Shown here one piece after another: positions 43,915 through 64,000 of a DNA stretch of 64,000 nt. Where the stretch lies: the NCBI GenBank assembly GCA_965205675.1, contig OZ242186.1, positions 1,568,001-1,632,000 of the forward strand. Direction: 5' to 3'. Below the pieces are notes generated by a model that searched no databases, was not told the origin of the DNA, and worked only from the letters and a program-made list of their open reading frames with translations. Within the stretch, counting starts at the first letter, position 1. The number at the start of each line of letters is the position of its first letter. Source of the DNA: Nitrosopumilus sp. (GTDB lineage: Archaea; Thermoproteota; Nitrososphaeria; Nitrososphaerales; Nitrosopumilaceae). The position numbers and the translations under genes were made by a program.

Positions 43915-44571
43915 TTGGGTTTAAGGGAAATTGGACTAAAAGAAGAATATCGTTCAGACAGAGATGATATTGTTGCAGAATTCTTTCTTCCTTGTCTAAG
44001 TAATTGCGTTGAGTATAACAGATGTGTGGATTTTTTATCAATTCAAACACTATCTACGTTTTCTGTAGCATTTGAAAATTTTGCAGAAGGTAAAGCAAAA
44101 TTAAGAATGATTACAGGTCACAGATTTAGAACAATTGACTTGAATTTATTTGCAAAGCTCTTTTCTGAGAAATTTACAAAATCATTTGAAGGTAAACTAA
44201 TTAAAGATGCTAAAATTCAAAAGCTTCAAGAGATTGTAAATCGAGGACAGGTAGAATTAAAAATTGCAATACCAAATTCAGAAAGAATCACAGATACATT
44301 TTCAGAAAGGATTGGAATTTTTAGAGATGAAGAAGATCAAACAGTGTCGTTTACAGGAACATCTAAAGAATCATTTTCAGCTCAATCAAGAGATTTTGAA
44401 TCTGTAGATGTATTTACATCATGGAATGATAAATCAAGGGTAGAAAGAAAAGTAAAAGACTTTGAAGAATTGTGGGAAAACAAAACAAAACATGTAAAAG
44501 TTTATGATTTTATGTATGCAGAAGAAAATAATCTTTTAAAATATTCATCAGAATGGATAATGAAGGATTAA
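43915..44571 (+). CDS. Stand-alone homologue of the PLD-like N-terminal domain of SF2 helicase/restriction proteins
   Basis: EYRSDRDDIVAEFFLPCL, ERIGIFRD..VSFTGTS, FESVDVFTSW, FEELWEN; HKD His not evident. Confidence 0.6.
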   Translation: MGLREIGLKEEYRSDRDDIVAEFFLPCLSNCVEYNRCVDFLSIQTLSTFSVAFENFAEGKAKLRMITGHRFRTIDLNLFAKLFSEKFTKSFEGKLIKDAKIQKLQEIVNRGQVELKIAIPNSERITDTFSERIGIFRDEEDQTVSFTGTSKESFSAQSRDFESVDVFTSWNDKSRVERKVKDFEELWENKTKHVKVYDFMYAEENNLLKYSSEWIMKD

Positions 44572-53111: not shown

Positions 53112-54205
53112 TATACCCCAGATCATAAGTCTTTTCAATTTATTGTTCTTGCAAAATACTGATACATATTCAAATTAAATTTGTGGGTTCTAAAATATTC
53201 CATAACTGTATGCCTCATTTCATGAATAGATTCATAAAATTCTGATTCAACATTAGCATGTTTGCACTGTCTCCAAATCTCTTCAATCATACTCAAATGC
53301 GGGGAGCCTCTTGGAAGATATGCCAGTTTGACATCTTTGTTTTTGTGCAGATATTCTTTTACACCATTAGCTTTGTGTTGTGGCGCTCTATCGACGATAA
53401 CAGATATTTTTCCAAATTTTCTACGAGCTGCCTCCAAATAATCCATAAATGCAATTGTGTTAAATTTTTCATACGATCTAAAAAAACTTTGATTGCCATC
53501 ATTTCCATAAACCAAAAATCTTTGGTGCGATCCTCTCCAACATACAATCATTCGTTGATGTGTATCTGTCCAGTATTTTTTACCAAGACGTACATCGTCT
53601 ACAAATACAGACTCGTCTTGGATAAATACTGTAAAACCTTTCTTTTTTGCCTTTTCTATGCGTGAAATGATGCGGTTTTTCCACTTGCGGCACGTATCCT
53701 TGGATGCTGCTCGCACATGTACCTTTTGTGGAACCTTTGGTTTTAGATTCCATTTGTGCATCAAACGACGCACATGAGTGATATGATATGTAATGCGTGT
53801 TCTGTAAAATATGAATTGTATCAGTTTTTTTGGAGTCATTCCATCTGAAATTCTCTTAAATGTACGCTCTATTTTTTGTAATTTTTTGTGTGAGATTAAT
53901 GGCGGACGGCCCGAACGAGGGAGATCCTCCAGGCCCCCCAATCCATATCTTTCAAATGAATCTATCTAATTCCTTACAGAATTATATGTACAAAACATTT
54001 GGTTGGCAGTTTCAGCAATTGTGGATTCATTGATTTTAATCTTACACATTGCATGTAATCTTGTTTTTTTGTGAATATTTTTTTCTTTTTTGTAGGCCTG
54101 GAGTAACTCGTCATTTGTGATGTCCATGAAATTATTTCTAACTACTGATCAAAAAGTATTGCTATTTGTTTTGAAAAATTGCAAAGAATTATGCTCCAAG
54201 GTATA
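53112..54205 (-). mobile_element. IS630-family element, transposase interrupted near the N-terminus
   Basis: TA-ended TIRs TATACCCCAGATCATAA / TTATGCTCCAAGGTATA; RSGRP, IQDES, VDRAPQH, LPRGSPHLSMIEEIW. Confidence 0.88.
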
Positions 54206-54471
54206 CATCAAAAGGAATGGAACAAGATACAGTCAAGAATCCGAATAAAAGTAGAACATATTATCTCTCAAATCAAAAAGTTTAGGATTAATTCTGAGAC
54301 ATTTAGGAATAGATTGTGCAGATATGATGCAATAAGTGACATCGTATGTGGAATTGTAAATTTCAAGACAAGATGGAAGCAAGAGTTTGTTGTGATTCCA
54401 TAAGATTAGAAATTATTTGAAATTAAATTCAATGAAAGATAAGATTTTGTTTGTAATTACGCAAGAGGTCT
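54204..54471 (+). mobile_element. IS5-family 3' fragment into which IS630 inserted at TA
   Basis: Identical to 48283-48550, starting at TACATCAAAAGG. Confidence 0.85.
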
Positions 54472-55442
54472 CTTCAAAAGAACTGAAATTTGATTCAATA
54501 ACTGTTGAATCAATACCCATTGATCATTCATTACCTAGAGTATTTGGATTTTTGATTCATACTTCTGAAGGTGATATTGGATACACGGCTGATATTAGAT
54601 TTCATGGAAGAAATTCTAACAATAGTCAAAATTTTGTTGATGAATGTGGTTTAGAAAATCTTGATTATCTTTTATGTGAAGGAACGAGAATTAACAAACA
54701 AGGTAGTATTACTGAATTTGATGTTGAAGATAAGGTTGCTGATATAATTGGAAATACTGAAGGTTTAGTTGTATGCACATATCCAACTAGAGATCTTGAT
54801 AGATTGCTTTCGTTTTATAATGCATCTAAAATAATGGAACGTGATTTAGTCATAGATACAAAACAAGCTTATCTGTTAAAATTATTTCAAACTACAAATG
54901 ATTGGAGACATATTTATCCTTCATCTGTAGATTCAGATATCAAAGTATTTGTTTCAAGGAAGTCTTGGGGTTTGTTGGTTCATTCTAAATATTCTATGAA
55001 TGAAATTCAATCAGATTATAAAAATTGGGAACGTGAATTTTTAGATTATTCTAATTTTGTAGATTATACGGATATTAAAAAAAACCCTAAAAAATATCTT
55101 TTTTATTGTTCTGATTTCCAATTACAGAATCTTATAGATATACAACCAGATGAAAAATCAAGTTATATTCGTTCATCCACAGAACCGTTTAACGATGAAA
55201 TGAAGATTGATCAAGAACGAATTAAAAGATGGTTAATTCATTTTGGATTAATATCAAAAAGTGGTAATTGGAACACAATTCATGTATCAGGTCATGGGCC
55301 AGGTGATCAAATTAAAAAAGTAGTTGATGAATCTAATCCTAAAACATTGATTCCAATTCATGCTGAGCATGAAGATTATTTTGACGTCTTACATAATCAT
55401 GTCCAAAAAGTTACATTGAATCAAACTCTTCAAATTAAATAA
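54472..55442 (+). pseudogene. 5'-truncated MBL/beta-CASP (RNase J-like) hydrolase
   Basis: IDHS, YTAD, CEGT, HVSGH and PIHAEH present; HxHxDH absent; first ~18 codons of the ORF come from the IS5 end. Confidence 0.75.
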
Positions 55443-58845: not shown

Positions 58846-59832
58846 TTGAAACCGAATCACACATTTCCAGATATTTCACGCTCAGAATACCAAGAAATCA
58901 AGGATTTTATCAATCAAAAATATAAAATTCAGATTTTAGAAAAAACCTCATCCGGACTAGAAGAGGCTTTTGATATTTTGAATGAATCCATCAAGGTTCA
59001 TTATTATACAAAAGGAAAATTGCTCTTTCAGGCCAGTCCCACAAACAAAACATATGCAAATTTGGTTTCAGACATAGATAGGAAATTTTCTTTAAATTTA
59101 CTTGAGGAGATAGAAACTTCAACTGAGATTCCTTCTGATGTGAAATATTATGTGGGATGTGATGAGTCAGGAGCGGGAGAAACCTTTGGGTCTATGTTTT
59201 TAGGATGTGTCACAATAGATGCAGATAATTTAAAAAATATTGAAGAAGTTTTTGATATCCAAAACATCAAGATGCTTGAAGAATATGAAATACTAGAAAA
59301 ATATAAGGTAATCAAAAAATTTTGTAAAATTTTTGTGAAAAAATGTATTGCATCAGAAATTGATGAAACTAGTAAAAATACACTTCTTGATAGAAAATAC
59401 AAAGAGTTGTTAAACGAGGCAACTCCTGAAAAAGAAAAGGCATGTGTGATAATTGATGATTATGGAATTCAAAGAGAATTGAAATCATTTGTAGATGATC
59501 TTCAGCGTATAGGAAATACAGTAATTGTTGTTAACAAAGCAGATGAAAAATATGCGATATGTCAGGCAGCATCAGTAATTGCAAGAAAAGAGAGATTTGC
59601 AGAAATGCGAGATATTGACAGAGAATTCAATCTGCAAGATGAATTGGGGAGAAGAGTTTTTCCAGGATCAGGTAATGCTGGAAATTCACAGACTGCTCAA
59701 TATTTAGAGACATTTATGAAACAAAATCCTGGCAAAGAACTTCCTCCATTTGTCAGAAGGAAATGGCGTAATGTACAAAAATTATTGCAAGAAAAATCAA
59801 ATCAGAAAATCTCACAATTTTTTGGAGAATGA
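58846..59832 (+). CDS. RNase H2-family nuclease with an RNase HIII-like N-terminal extension
   Basis: GCDESGAGETFG, IIDD, KAD, AASVIARKER, GSG, LPPFVRRKW; N-terminal VHYYTKGKLLFQ. Confidence 0.8.
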   Translation: MKPNHTFPDISRSEYQEIKDFINQKYKIQILEKTSSGLEEAFDILNESIKVHYYTKGKLLFQASPTNKTYANLVSDIDRKFSLNLLEEIETSTEIPSDVKYYVGCDESGAGETFGSMFLGCVTIDADNLKNIEEVFDIQNIKMLEEYEILEKYKVIKKFCKIFVKKCIASEIDETSKNTLLDRKYKELLNEATPEKEKACVIIDDYGIQRELKSFVDDLQRIGNTVIVVNKADEKYAICQAASVIARKERFAEMRDIDREFNLQDELGRRVFPGSGNAGNSQTAQYLETFMKQNPGKELPPFVRRKWRNVQKLLQEKSNQKISQFFGE

Positions 59833-60378: not shown

Positions 60379-60520
60379 TAGACCTCTTGCGTAATTATAG
60401 CGATTTTTTCTCAAATTTTGTATTTTAACAGAATTCATACCTGAAAATTCAAATTTCTCAACTCATTTGAAAAATCCTGCAGCAAAATTCACGCCTAGAA
60501 ATAATTACGCAAGACGTCTT
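60379..60520. mobile_element. MITE with IS5-type TIRs and an unrelated interior
   Basis: TAGACCTCTTGCGTAATTAT ... ATAATTACGCAAGACGTCT. Confidence 0.7.
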
Positions 60521-60539: not shown

Positions 60540-60915
60540 TACCAGTTTAACAGCAAGAAAAATCCGAGATTGATTATTCCAATGAAGTAATACAGATGTA
60601 CGCCACCAAAGAGAATCAAATCCGTAGAGTTTTACAATTCTGTAACGGGTCAAGAGTTGTACAAAGATAGGGAAATCTCAATTGGGTCACTATTTCAAGT
60701 AATCAAAGATATGTTTGATATCAGAACAGTCCCTGTAAAAGTATTATACAATACCAAATCATTTGTATTGATTTGTGTATTGGTGTATTAATTGAGTGTA
60801 CTACAACTGCGTCATTGGGGTAGAGAATCCAAGGATTATAAAGAGAATGATTTGTTGTTAGAGAATATTCTAGATTAAAATTTTATTTTTGTAAATCACT
60901 ATGCCCAGATCTCAA
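60540..60915 (+). pseudogene. Degraded DDE transposase C-terminus and IS end
   Basis: GQELYKDREISIGSLFQVIKDMFDI resembles a Y-R-E-K region; 3' end repeated at 23905-24000. Confidence 0.5.
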
Positions 60916-60969
60916 ATAAACATGATAAAAAATAACGATTAAATTTAAGAATTAATATATTTTTATCAA

Positions 60970-61044
60970 GCTCCTATAGTGTAGTCCGGTTAAGCATTTT
61001 GGCTTCTCAAGCCAAAGACTCGGGTTCAAATCCCGATGGGAGCA
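60970..61044 (+). tRNA. tRNA-Glu (CTC)
   Basis: GCTCCTA/TGGGAGC acceptor stem, TTGGC-TTCTCAA-GCCAA anticodon arm, GTTCAAATC. Confidence 0.94.
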
Positions 61045-61170
61045 TTACACATATGGTTTCATACTCCCCCCCCCCTGTTCTACTATCAACTCATCCCAAT
61101 ACTCTCCAACACATCAGAATTGATGCAAAATAAACAAGTCCCAGATAATTCTTGCAATTCTTTTCATTTC

Positions 61171-61477
61171 TTATTGCAGTTCTTGCAGAATCCACACTTG
61201 AGCCATGCAAAGAATCTCTCCATACATAACGAATCTTGTTATATTTTTTGTATGGCTTATTTTTTTTGTTGCTTCATCATTATTTTTTCTAAATGGAATA
61301 CCTAGATTGATGTTTCTGTCTCTCAAATAATTTCTGATGTATTTTGCATCATAACCTTTGTCTGCATAAACTGAAACAATTTCCCTCACCATCTACAAAA
61401 TCAAAGATGTTTTCTATTACATCAATGAATTTTGTGGAATCATTGATATTTGCAGAACCCATTACAATAGATATCCG
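61171..61477 (-). pseudogene. IS5-family (different subgroup) transposase fragment
   Basis: VYADKGYDAKYIRNYL...IP motif. Confidence 0.7.
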
Positions 61478-61810
61478 CAGTACTTGGGAAAGTGACTATC
61501 TGACATCTTCCAAATAGTATTGGGATTTTATTCCACTAAAGAAATCAACGATGACAATCTCAAAGATGCGCTTGAGAATTTCAATTGTAATTATTGGATT
61601 TATGTGATTAATAGAACAGTTATCCCTTAACATGACATTTGCAAATGCTTGAGTTGTTGAATTTCTAATGTGTGCAAAATCAAGATTGCTATGATTCACA
61701 TTTGATGGAGAAGCACACCTCCTTCAAGCTTTTTCTATCCAAATTTTTTGTTTAACTGATGAAATAATGGTTAGTTTGTGATCTAAATTGAGTTACTTTC
61801 CCAAGTACTG
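61478..61810 (-). mobile_element. Internally deleted ISH3-type element
   Basis: TIRs CAGTACTTGGGAAAGT(G/A)ACT at both ends; end shared with 23870-23900. Confidence 0.75.
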
Positions 61811-61890
61811 TTGATGGCGTGTATTTTACTCCTACGTTAGTAGAATTGTTTAAGGAATTTAAGAAAGTGATATACAAATTTCAAATATAA

Positions 61891-62565
61891 TCAGTCACAA
61901 TAAAACTGTTTTTCTTTTTCAAAAGCAAAAATCAGTGTTTTGTCTTGGGTAATTAATCTGACACCCTCAATAGTCAAAGCCTTTTGAAGTAATATGGAAT
62001 CCGTTTCTGAAAGAGGCGTTCCTTTGCCATTAACATATTTTTTAGATTCATATAGTTCCTTGGCACGTAACATTTCTTCGGATGCATAATCTATTGTGAC
62101 ATGAGTAACATTTGCAATCTTTTCTAATTTATCGCTTATTTCATTTGCATCTAATCTGCGATTAAACTTGTCTGATTCCATATGTTTTGTCTCAATCAAT
62201 ATTCTATCCAATATGACTAATTCTACATTATCATTTGGGTTAATTCCTGCAAGTTCATGTATTGACTTTCCATCGAGTAGTTGATGTATTATCATGGTAT
62301 CAAGTAAAAGTTTAGTGCTTTTTTTGACGTTTGTTTGATCAGTTTTGATAATAATTTTCGATAGACTATGATCTATAATCGCATGCGTTTTACCAAAAAT
62401 ATTTGCTTTGCCTCCTGTAGGTTCAGCTAAAAGATTGCCACAAAACTTGCAATTGATAATGCTTTTTGCCATGGTAAATACAACACTTGTCAAATTACAT
62501 GAATTGCACTCAATTTCTACAAATCTACTTTTTGGCTCTGGGATGAGAACATTGCTGCCTTTCAA
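61891..62565 (-). CDS. eS27 (S27e)-like Zn ribbon fused to a PIN ribonuclease domain
   Basis: IPEPKSRFVEIECNSC..VVFT.A...INCKFCGNLLAEPTGGKA (eS27); LLLDT, ILIE, LSETD, LITQDKTL (PIN acidic residues). Confidence 0.82.
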   Translation of the reverse strand: MKGSNVLIPEPKSRFVEIECNSCNLTSVVFTMAKSIINCKFCGNLLAEPTGGKANIFGKTHAIIDHSLSKIIIKTDQTNVKKSTKLLLDTMIIHQLLDGKSIHELAGINPNDNVELVILDRILIETKHMESDKFNRRLDANEISDKLEKIANVTHVTIDYASEEMLRAKELYESKKYVNGKGTPLSETDSILLQKALTIEGVRLITQDKTLIFAFEKEKQFYCD

Positions 62566-62623
62566 CTATTGACAATTAATCTTCTAAAATAATATGTTTT
62601 TGATTGAATTAGTATTATAACAA

Positions 62624-62761
62624 TCAAACATTTACACGAATCTGACCAGTAAGCAATTTCTGCATCAGATCCTTCTTTAGAATTTCTAATTTTTCCTTGT
62701 ATTCTTGATTCTTTTGGATATATACGTCAACTCCCGACAGGATTGACGCAATAATTAGCAT
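62624..62761 (-). pseudogene. hsdS: C-terminal relic of type I RM specificity subunit
   Basis: IASILSGVDVYIQKNQEYKEKLEILKKDLMQKLLTGQIRV is a typical HsdS terminal conserved helix. Confidence 0.75.
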
Positions 62762-62835
62762 TCAAATATTTTGGTTCGTAATTTTATACGTAAAATTGGC
62801 AATATTTTTAATATTTTTTGCAAGAATGAACGATT

Positions 62836-63042
62836 ATGAGTTCAACAATACAGAAAAAAACATACACAGTTGTAATAGCTAAGGATGATGAGGATGGCGG
62901 ATTTGTTGGCAGATGTGATGAATTACACGCAAATTCACAGGGTGAGACATATGATGAAATTATGGAAAACATGAAGGAGGCCATAGAGTTAGCAGGAGAA
63001 GACAAACATAGTGAATTCAATCCACTTGTCATCCAAAAGTAA
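62836..63042 (+). CDS. hicB: HicB-family antitoxin (short form)
   Basis: YTVVIAKDDEDGGFVGRCDEL.ANSQGETYDEIMENMKEAIEL. Confidence 0.88.
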   Translation: MSSTIQKKTYTVVIAKDDEDGGFVGRCDELHANSQGETYDEIMENMKEAIELAGEDKHSEFNPLVIQK

Positions 63043-63275
63043 TGTCAAAAATTCCCAAAGTCACGGGTAATGTCATGATTAAATATTTGATCAAAAAAGG
63101 ATTTGTAATAACGCATAGAAAAGGAAGTCATGCAAGGCCAAGTACCAGTGATCTTTTTACAACTATTCTCGCAGGCAACTGCATCTTAAAGACCGGTACG
63201 ATGTTGACAATATACGACATAGGCATGACACGGAATGATTTTGTTACCGAGTATGACAGAGGAAATGTAAACTAA
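63042..63275 (+). CDS. hicA: HicA-family mRNA interferase (possibly degenerate)
   Basis: IKYLIKKGF...RKGSH...LKTGT; TAATG overlap with hicB. Confidence 0.78.
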   Translation: MSKIPKVTGNVMIKYLIKKGFVITHRKGSHARPSTSDLFTTILAGNCILKTGTMLTIYDIGMTRNDFVTEYDRGNVN

Positions 63276-63323: not shown

Positions 63324-63718
63324 TATACCCCAGATCATAAGTCTTTTCAATTTATTGTTCTTGCAAAATACTGATACATATTCAAATTAAATTTGTGCGT
63401 TCTAAAATATTCCATAACTGTATACCTCATCTCATGAATAGATTCATAAAATTCTGATTCAACATTAACATGTTTGCACTGTCTCCAAATCTCTTCAATC
63501 ATACTCAAATGCAGGTTGGCAGTTTCAGCAATTGTGGATTCGTTGATCTTAATTATACACATTGCATGCAGTCTTTCCTTTTTCTTACCGTATTTTTCTT
63601 TTTTGTAGGCCTGGAGTAATTCGTCATTTGTGATGTCCATGAAATTATTTCTAACTACTGATCAAAAAGTATTGCTATTTGTTTTGAAAAATTGCAAAGA
63701 ATTATGCTCCGAGGTATA
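63324..63718 (-). mobile_element. Internally deleted IS630 copy
   Basis: Same TIRs as 53112-54205; in-frame join of the N- and C-termini (ORF 63347-63640). Confidence 0.85.
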
Positions 63719-63889
63719 AACACATGTGCAAAAATAAACATTCTACAACTTTGTCTTTTCGCTACAAGTGATGCAAAAAGAAGTATTGCTGGGTTAGCAG
63801 TACTTGCACATCTTTTTGAAAAATGTAAGGTATTTGAAAAAGAGTATGAGATAATATTTGACAGAGAAAAATTTCTAGTTCAAATAACA

Positions 63890-64000
63890 GACCTCTTGTG
63901 TAATTGCAGATAAAACCTCTTCTTTCATTGAATTTAATTTCAAATAATTTCTGAGATTATGGAATCACAACAAACTCTTGTTTCTGTCTTGTCTAAGTTG
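63890..64000 (-). mobile_element. Diverged IS5-family end running off the window
   Basis: AGACCTCTTG.GTAATT...CTTTCATTGAATTTAATTTCAAATAATTTCT. Confidence 0.75.

Follow-up and report, generated by a model that had tools for sequence, protein, structure and literature searches.

An eS27-PIN fusion gene beside an hsdS remnant in Nitrosopumilus: a possible solo RNase anchored on the small ribosomal subunit

The eS27-PIN gene and its two domains

We analysed a 64,000-nucleotide stretch of a Nitrosopumilus sp. genome (contig OZ242186.1, positions 1,568,001 to 1,632,000), referred to here as the window, which is AT-rich (about 33% GC) and archaeal in character. Near its right-hand end, a minus-strand gene encodes a protein in which the ribosomal protein eS27 (S27e) is fused to a PIN-type nuclease domain; we call it eS27-PIN. 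Directly upstream of it, on the same strand, lies a relic of hsdS, the specificity-subunit gene of type I restriction-modification (RM) systems, followed by a divergent hicB-hicA-like gene pair. The features of this part of the window are:

61891..62565, minus strand: eS27-PIN fusion gene, 224 aa, with a TTG start at 62565.
62377..62550, minus strand: eS27 zinc-ribbon domain, residues 6-63, with Cys20/23/39/42 and the PEPKSRF motif intact.
61909..62313, minus strand: VapC-fold PIN domain, residues 85-219, with predicted catalytic D89, E125, D189 and D208 (with T206).
62586..62601, minus strand: AT-rich 16-mer, a candidate archaeal promoter of the gene's own, with a putative B recognition element (BRE)/TATA-like reading.
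62624..62752, minus strand: hsdS relic, 42 codons from the 3' end of a type I specificity-subunit gene, encoding its conserved C-terminal helix; the open reading frame (ORF) extends to an ATG at 62761.
62780..62797: palindrome with 7-bp arms and a 4-nt loop upstream of hicB, AT-rich, a putative operator.
62836..63042, plus strand: hicB-like gene, 68 aa, without a DNA-binding domain.
63042..63275, plus strand: hicA-like gene, 77 aa, with the GSH motif kept and a diverged C-terminal half.

The N-terminal part of the protein is recognised by both sequence and structure. It matches Pfam PF01667 (9e-17) and NCBIfam PRK00415 (3e-19, 68.3 bits) as well as eS27 entries in the PDB (E 2e-13), and its predicted structure aligns with eS27 at Z 8.0 and a root-mean-square deviation (rmsd) of 1.6 A over 54 residues. 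The zinc-ribbon fold carries a C-x2-C...C-x2-C arrangement and a P-x-S-x-F motif. The fused domain thus resembles ribosomal eS27 in its 41-44% identity to solved archaeal eS27 and its four cysteines, and departs from it in being joined to a 140-aa nuclease, in scoring just under the equivalog cut-off (68.3 vs 70 bits) and in an altered central motif.

The PIN domain is undetected by Pfam on the window protein itself, and was revealed via homologues (E 1e-4 to 0.12), the atlas and the fold. In the VIA fold comparison it matches Mycobacterium tuberculosis VapC20 (Z 11.8, rmsd 2.9, 118 residues aligned), whose PDB title calls it a sarcin-ricin-loop-cleaving toxin, P. aerophilum PAE0151 and A. fulgidus AF1683 (Z 10.5-10.6), Utp24 (Z 8.7) and Nob1 (Z 8.3), and the top 16 rows are all PIN/VapC-type entries. 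Foldseek matches the domain to 2fe1 (E 7e-4); searching PDB sequences with the PIN profile gave no match, to Nob1 or any other entry. The residues D89, E125, D189, T206 and D208 are retained in 17 of 17 eS27-bearing rows, and the four acidic ones mostly across 64 family rows, both sets including near-duplicates, and the assignment of D89, E125, D189 and D208 to the catalytic site rests on motif position. By these features the C-terminal part is a VapC-fold PIN domain with an intact predicted active site. An AlphaFold model, built from a 12-sequence alignment, contains two folded domains separated by a linker whose residues 66-80 fall below a predicted local distance difference test (pLDDT) score of 50 (mean pLDDT 79.5, predicted template modelling score 0.61). 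We rejected read-through or an assembly artefact as the source of the fusion, since the same continuous frame is found in 11 other proteins.

Comparison with known nucleases places the protein between several families. Like the VapC-type RNases VapC20, PAE0151 and AF1683, it combines the fold (Z 10.5-11.8) with four acidic active-site positions; unlike them, it shows 14-21% identity, has no adjacent VapB, carries an N-terminal ribosomal-protein domain and lies below the Pfam PIN and NCBIfam VapC cut-offs. VapBC systems also differ in having an adjacent antitoxin gene of the ribbon-helix-helix (RHH), AbrB or helix-turn-helix (HTH) type, which eS27-PIN lacks. With archaeal Nob1, a PIN protein with a zinc ribbon that acts at 16S rRNA site D, it shares a flexible linker between PIN and ribbon, and, according to PMC3326319, the linker-joined ribbon of Nob1 alone binds small-subunit rRNA and anchors the PIN domain on helix 40. 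In contrast to Nob1, eS27-PIN has the reverse domain order, a recognisable eS27 as its ribbon, a patchy and mobile spread and a weaker fold match than to the VapC toxins (Z 8.3). By the features tested, eS27-PIN is of a kind predicted to work like a VapC/Nob1-type nuclease yet falls outside VapBC, Nob1 and the PrrC-type guards of RM systems. No description of an eS27/S27e-PIN fusion was found in the open-access literature. Both parts are well known, and the use of a conserved ribosomal protein as the putative targeting domain of a VapC-fold nuclease appears to be the new element; the interest of the locus is owed to this fusion protein and not to the hsdS relic.

Conservation, spread and mobility of the gene

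Among the six eS27-PIN genes for which DNA was available, all 15 pairwise comparisons give a higher identity for eS27 than for PIN (57-81% vs 44-76%), with synonymous sites near saturation, which indicates that the eS27 module is actively maintained. Its four cysteines are present in all 14 proteins with a complete N-terminus. Searching 1.84 billion proteins with a PIN-only profile gave 47 representatives at 50% identity. In a family tree of 54 of the 64 rows (10 with a short or motif-less PIN match were omitted, and 3 duplicate proteins had been removed before), the PIN domain is accompanied by eS27 in 17, K/R-rich tails in 16, C-terminal zinc ribbons in six and a TPR region in one, and some members carry no accessory module. 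In each of 11 proteins examined the N-terminal module carries a net positive charge, and in nine of them the PIN domain carries a net negative one, as expected if the module supplies RNA binding.

The eS27 forms cluster in the PIN trees. One protein, P0100, stands apart: this 227-aa eS27-PIN has a near-canonical eS27 that scores 73 bits, above the cut-off, and keeps the His after the conserved Phe, making it the best candidate for a fusion that is recent or arose independently. In a tree of 33 chosen rows, a single group of all 15 eS27 rows was borderline rejected by the approximately unbiased test (p-AU 0.048), and 14 of the rows group with a support of 37. The trees suggest that the fusion may have had one origin with later losses, or may have arisen in two events.

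A scan of GTDB species genomes yielded eight related loci from 61 candidate stretches, all from Nitrosopumilus sp. or Nitrosopumilaceae archaeon. Five carry eS27-PIN, two (L004 and L006) carry the same PIN behind a K/R-rich tail and one is truncated by the start of its contig. Together with the window copy, nine copies occupy eight different neighbourhoods, and only L007 and L008 share a site; the gene is mobile. Phage and plasmid collections, which hold few archaeal elements, gave no match to it. The neighbours at the eight loci are:

L001: a NucS-like PDC-S11 nuclease.
L002: position between a multi-HTH gene and rps17e.
L003: a PDC-S34 HAD protein directly upstream.
L004: two resolvase-like nucleases.
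L005: insertion sequence (IS) elements, a second PIN and a CARF fragment.
L006: a CARF-wHTH gene, an Abi_2-like gene and a TGT/PCNA/DpdK-like/helicase cluster.
L007 and L008: the gene follows a DinG-type helicase.

Defence-like or mobile neighbours are found at five of the eight loci, a count taken with no background control and with PADLOC models that also match housekeeping genes there, and we treat the link to defence as a lead only. The first-pass annotation of the window had predicted that homologues would be associated with RM or defence genes; this looser company is what remains of the prediction, and its RM part came out negative. None of the eight carries a type I subunit (hsdM, hsdS or hsdR) by PADLOC on 221 ORFs, by the HsdS profile and tblastn in six frames, or in 131 flanking fragments. 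In this survey eight proteins with multiple hits were represented by their best five families each, L001 has no upstream DNA and L005 has only 2.1 kb of it. A Pfam ResIII match at L007:7720-9384 was rejected as an RM gene because it is a DinG/XPD-type helicase for which Helicase_C_2 scores better. As a weak proxy, the 12 eS27-PIN proteins and the 75 HsdS proteins that match the window's relic gave no sign of a shared contig. The same 131 fragments contain no member of a known antitoxin family adjacent to the gene, L001 again being without upstream DNA, and the upstream neighbour of the window copy is the hsdS relic and no antitoxin gene.

The AT-rich 16-mer in the 58-bp gap upstream of the window gene recurs ahead of the L003 and L005 genes, which have no hsdS, at -28 and -38, with 14 of its 16 positions matching. 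Only one of 125 unrelated upstream regions reaches 14 matches; the other five loci lack the 16-mer. Its recurrence at hsdS-free homologues points to a self-contained cassette and suggests that eS27-PIN carries its own promoter.

Two further observations concern these loci. L006:5822-20398 is an element that comprises a CARF-wHTH regulator, numerous very small ORFs, the PIN with the basic tail, Abi_2-like, TPR and MBL genes, and then TGT, PCNA-like and DpdK-like genes and a helicase, and by its gene content it looks like an archaeal Dpd-related cluster. At L005, relics of two genes of this L006 element adjoin the eS27-PIN gene.

A possible anchor on the small ribosomal subunit

On the analogies above, we tentatively propose that eS27-PIN is a solo mobile RNase that uses eS27 as its small-subunit anchor, a reading that we prefer to each alternative considered below while giving it a little short of an even chance. 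The borrowed eS27 copy would act as an address label for the nuclease: the zinc ribbon would dock on the small subunit, for which the simplest place would be the eS27 site of particles that are being assembled, are damaged or lack eS27, and the flexible linker of some 20 residues would let the acidic VapC-fold PIN reach nearby rRNA or ribosome-bound RNA. Cleavage of such RNA could then slow or stop translation under stress or infection. PMC9932298 describes eS27 as a small beta-barrel that has two partner proteins within the small subunit of archaea. Restraint without an antitoxin might come from expression at the gene's own promoter together with competition from the normal eS27 that the cell presumably keeps. 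Solo toxin homologues are common according to PMC2701414, so an eS27-PIN gene without an antitoxin is unremarkable in itself. Should docking at the eS27 site prove true, it would reveal a new means by which mobile genes regulate translation with no antitoxin involved. The protein would then also serve as a natural tool for probing the eS27 site while archaeal ribosomes assemble, and its gene would be a testable candidate for defence or dormancy in the ammonia-oxidising archaea, a group of importance to the nitrogen cycle.

Several results weigh against the proposed anchoring. All but one of the 14 fusions score 59.8-68.3 bits, under the 70-bit eS27 cut-off, compared with 92-110 bits for five stand-alone eS27 proteins. 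The N-x-Q stretch seen in stand-alone eS27 has given way to other residues and the conserved Phe is followed by a Met specific to the family, and with these motifs altered the ribosomal interface may have changed as well. A search for the normal eS27 of the host returned seven short proteins without taxonomy and no identifiable thaumarchaeal eS27, and PADLOC models gave no match to the eS27-PIN protein. L007 and L008 lie at one shared site beside conserved genes and L002 adjoins rps17e, so that some copies look settled rather than island-bound. Lastly, the interchange of eS27 with simple basic tails across the family would suit a generic RNA grip equally well.

A bolder version of the anchoring idea, which we consider unlikely although it is the least so of the alternatives, is that eS27-PIN is a 'Trojan ribosomal protein', built or swapped into the small subunit in place of normal eS27, bringing a VapC-type nuclease onto the ribosome and arming it for self-destruction on infection or stress. 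The fusion, having perhaps arisen twice, would then be a one-gene, antitoxin-free kill switch for translation, with a core ribosomal protein as its carrier.

It is improbable that the eS27 zinc ribbon was captured by chance as a basic RNA handle, leaving an ordinary solo PIN RNase whose substrates are tRNA or mRNA and which has no particular tie to the ribosome. The interchangeable N-terminal modules, the alteration of residues typical of stand-alone eS27 and the abundance of solo toxin homologues (PMC2701414) would all fit such a protein. A mere handle, however, would not be expected to keep its high identity and near-cut-off eS27 score in the face of synonymous saturation, the charge of the eS27 module (+2 to +5) is lower than that of most tails (+4 to +18), and the divergent P0100 retains a near-canonical eS27, maybe from a second fusion.

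We give the same low weight to a fused toxin-antitoxin or guard arrangement, in which eS27 would be a bait or an intramolecular inhibitor that holds the PIN domain shut until a viral protein targets eS27 or the small subunit, or until zinc falls. No antitoxin-family gene adjoins the gene at any of the eight loci, several of which have defence-like neighbours, and the eS27 module is under stronger constraint than the PIN while having diverged from the ribosomal consensus along lines specific to this family, as would suit such a lock. The single-chain model, a weak guide given its 12-sequence alignment, shows no confident packing of the two domains against each other, and the close relatives at L004 and L006 have only a basic tail and no eS27. 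The module is also basic, whereas VapB-type inhibitors plug the active site of their toxin.

Slightly less probable still is a housekeeping accessory, a Nob1/Utp24-like nuclease for rRNA processing or ribosome quality control in some lineages with no toxin or defence role. Its two-domain logic recalls Nob1, the fold matches Utp24, Nob1 and Utp23 at Z 7.7-8.7, the gene is apparently tolerated without an antitoxin, and L007 and L008 keep it at one site with synonymous saturation. Against this, the gene is very patchy (eight loci), sits at eight sites, often amid IS and defence-like genes, and has a fold nearer to VapC toxins than to Nob1.

The hsdS remnant and the debris around it

The first-pass annotation had read the ORF at 62624-62761 (minus strand, 45 codons) as the C-terminal helix of HsdS, with its stop 58 bp before the eS27-PIN start on the same strand, and both statements hold. 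The PADLOC model Specificity_I matches residues 4-44 (E 1.5e-13), and comparison with longer proteins gave 75 matches among 95 candidates at E<=0.01 (best E 2e-21), 73 of the 75 carrying PF01420, with up to 93% identity to full-length HsdS over about 42 aa; Pfam and NCBIfam alone did not detect the relic. The homology begins at codon 4 (62752). At the place of the first three codons, 52 of 52 full-length HsdS carry EQQK-like residues, and the relic has three unrelated codons, so its ATG was supplied by intergenic DNA upstream of hicB and the ORF spans a deletion junction. For the same reason a functional 45-aa peptide is not favoured. At 37 of 40 positions the helix has the majority residue of the family, as the 52 full-length proteins do at 26-40 (median 36), and since it is as close to the majority as intact copies are, the truncation is probably recent. 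A six-frame search of the window with the HsdS profile found no other piece of HsdS, the target-recognition domain (TRD) included; by sequence the relic is a scrap of a type I HsdS, with the C-terminal helical region present, and no working subunit. Among the matches are half-size HsdS proteins of 190-225 aa with one TRD and the conserved helix (P0073, P0076-P0078, P0080, P0081 and P0087), some of which begin inside the conserved repeat, and truncated or half forms seem frequent among the relic's matches.

PrrC belongs to a different nuclease class from PIN. It is embedded in a type I RM system, as the first-pass annotation had it, PMC12707154 placing it in a type IC locus. The accompanying proposal was that eS27-PIN is likewise an RM-embedded RNase, which would fire on inhibition of the type I enzyme and survived deletion of most of the hsd operon. 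PMC5499597 records couplings of PIN genes to type I hsdM/hsdS, with no antitoxin present, as sporadic and unconserved; given such precedents, the window copy may well have followed a complete hsdS at one time. The likeness to PrrC/EcoPrrI and to these couplings, a predicted RNase gene directly behind a co-oriented, recently truncated hsdS 3' end, is confined to the window genome. This is the least likely of the readings considered here: no type I subunit occurs at the eight related loci, the gene is intact and under selection at RM-free sites, a promoter-like word shared with hsdS-free homologues lies within the gap, and neither Pfam nor fold searches found an ATPase or other sensor domain in eS27-PIN. 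Moreover, 68 fragments covering 58.2-64 kb of the window hold no hsdM or hsdR remnant, and the predicted hsdM-hsdS-X-hsdR layout is absent, with no hsdR remnant after the gene in the window and none at the eight loci. The family, then, is independent of hsdS, and of the survival scenario there is left only a possible former position of this one copy. The hsdS scrap looks like a neighbour by circumstance and no partner of eS27-PIN.

The hicB-hicA-like genes lie next to the relic and divergent from it, as had been described, and overlap each other by one base; their assignments are consistent with HicAB features at scores below the curated Pfam cut-offs. The HicB-like protein matches HicB_lk_antitox (E 0.028), PDB 2yzt (E 8e-8) and the HicB structure 6u0i (E 0.086); the HicA-like protein matches HicA_toxin over residues 12-32 (E 0.0025) and scores 0.88 in the atlas with 197 shared features, and a PDB search with it returned no HicA among its matches. 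The pair resembles HicAB type II toxin-antitoxin systems in its two short overlapping genes and differs in the lack of a DNA-binding domain in its HicB and in the sub-threshold scores. HicA and HicB are reported as an exclusive pair in PMC2701414. HicB was rejected as an antitoxin for the PIN, since its gene is divergent, forms a pair with hicA and is missing from the other loci. No hicAB-like pair was found beside any of the eight related PIN loci, which indicates that the pair is unrelated to eS27-PIN.

The patch of relics to which these genes belong begins after the RNase HII gene rnhB (58846-59832). From there, the order is a MITE-like element, a decayed repeat, tRNA-Glu, a broken IS5 transposase, eS27-PIN with the relic and hicBA, an internally deleted IS and an IS end:

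60380..60519: miniature inverted-repeat transposable element (MITE)-like element of 140 bp, with 19-nt terminal inverted repeats (95%) that resemble the IS end at 63891.
60553..60918: decayed repeat, with two copies also in L005 and a partial copy at window 23899-24003.
60970..61044, plus strand: tRNA-Glu (CTC), about 850 bp from the end of the eS27-PIN gene.
61086..61458, minus strand: frameshifted IS5-family transposase relic (NCBIfam transpos_IS5_2, E 3e-8), with DNA and protein matches to the L005 IS.
63324..63718, minus strand: internally deleted copy of a DDE_3/HTH_33 element, which we take to be IS630-type, identified by Pfam and by DNA identity of 97% and 92% to the two ends of the full element at 53112-54205.
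63869..64000: IS end, with five further repeats elsewhere in the window.

IS or repeat debris accounts for about 1,750 of the 4,170 bases after rnhB, which supports reading the stretch as an eroded defence and mobile patch. The window contains no duplicated tRNA end (att site) of at least 14 nt, although the far end may lie past base 64000, so integration at tRNA-Glu, and with it an island there, is plausible only. We see the hsdS scrap, hicBA and the IS remains as sharing a defence patch in decay, and the locus as first framed is ordinary genome erosion.

Further observations were made in the window. Just downstream of eS27-PIN, 25-nt inverted repeats (88%) enclose 343 bp at 61473-61815 with a 67-codon ORF inside, probably another small non-autonomous element. 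The halves of a 212-bp stretch at 23792-24003 recur in swapped order on either side of tRNA-Glu, at 60816-60918 and 61694-61810 (76-80% identity), possibly as abutting IS ends. A second RM relic, a 99-aa fragment of a type II/Eco57I-like methyltransferase, lies amid IS elements at 21913-22212 on the minus strand (PADLOC MTase_II, E 2e-29), suggesting that erosion of RM genes is general in this genome. On the plus strand, a 341-aa beta-CASP/RMMBL nuclease-like ORF at 54417-55442 overlaps an IS end at its 5' end and is 34% identical to L006:11882-13300 within the L006 element, and a 218-aa protein encoded at 43915-44571, flanked by conserved genes on both sides and without a Pfam match, matches the N-terminal third of the PADLOC PbeA models (E 6e-46). 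Finally, a higher-GC stretch between IS copies at 24041-30128 encodes a subtilase of 1598 aa (Peptidase_S8, P-domain, Ig) and, immediately after it, a serpin of 432 aa. PMC7848895 reports serpins and numerous transposases from sponge-associated Thaumarchaeota, and by this analogy the subtilase-serpin pair hints at a host-associated lifestyle.

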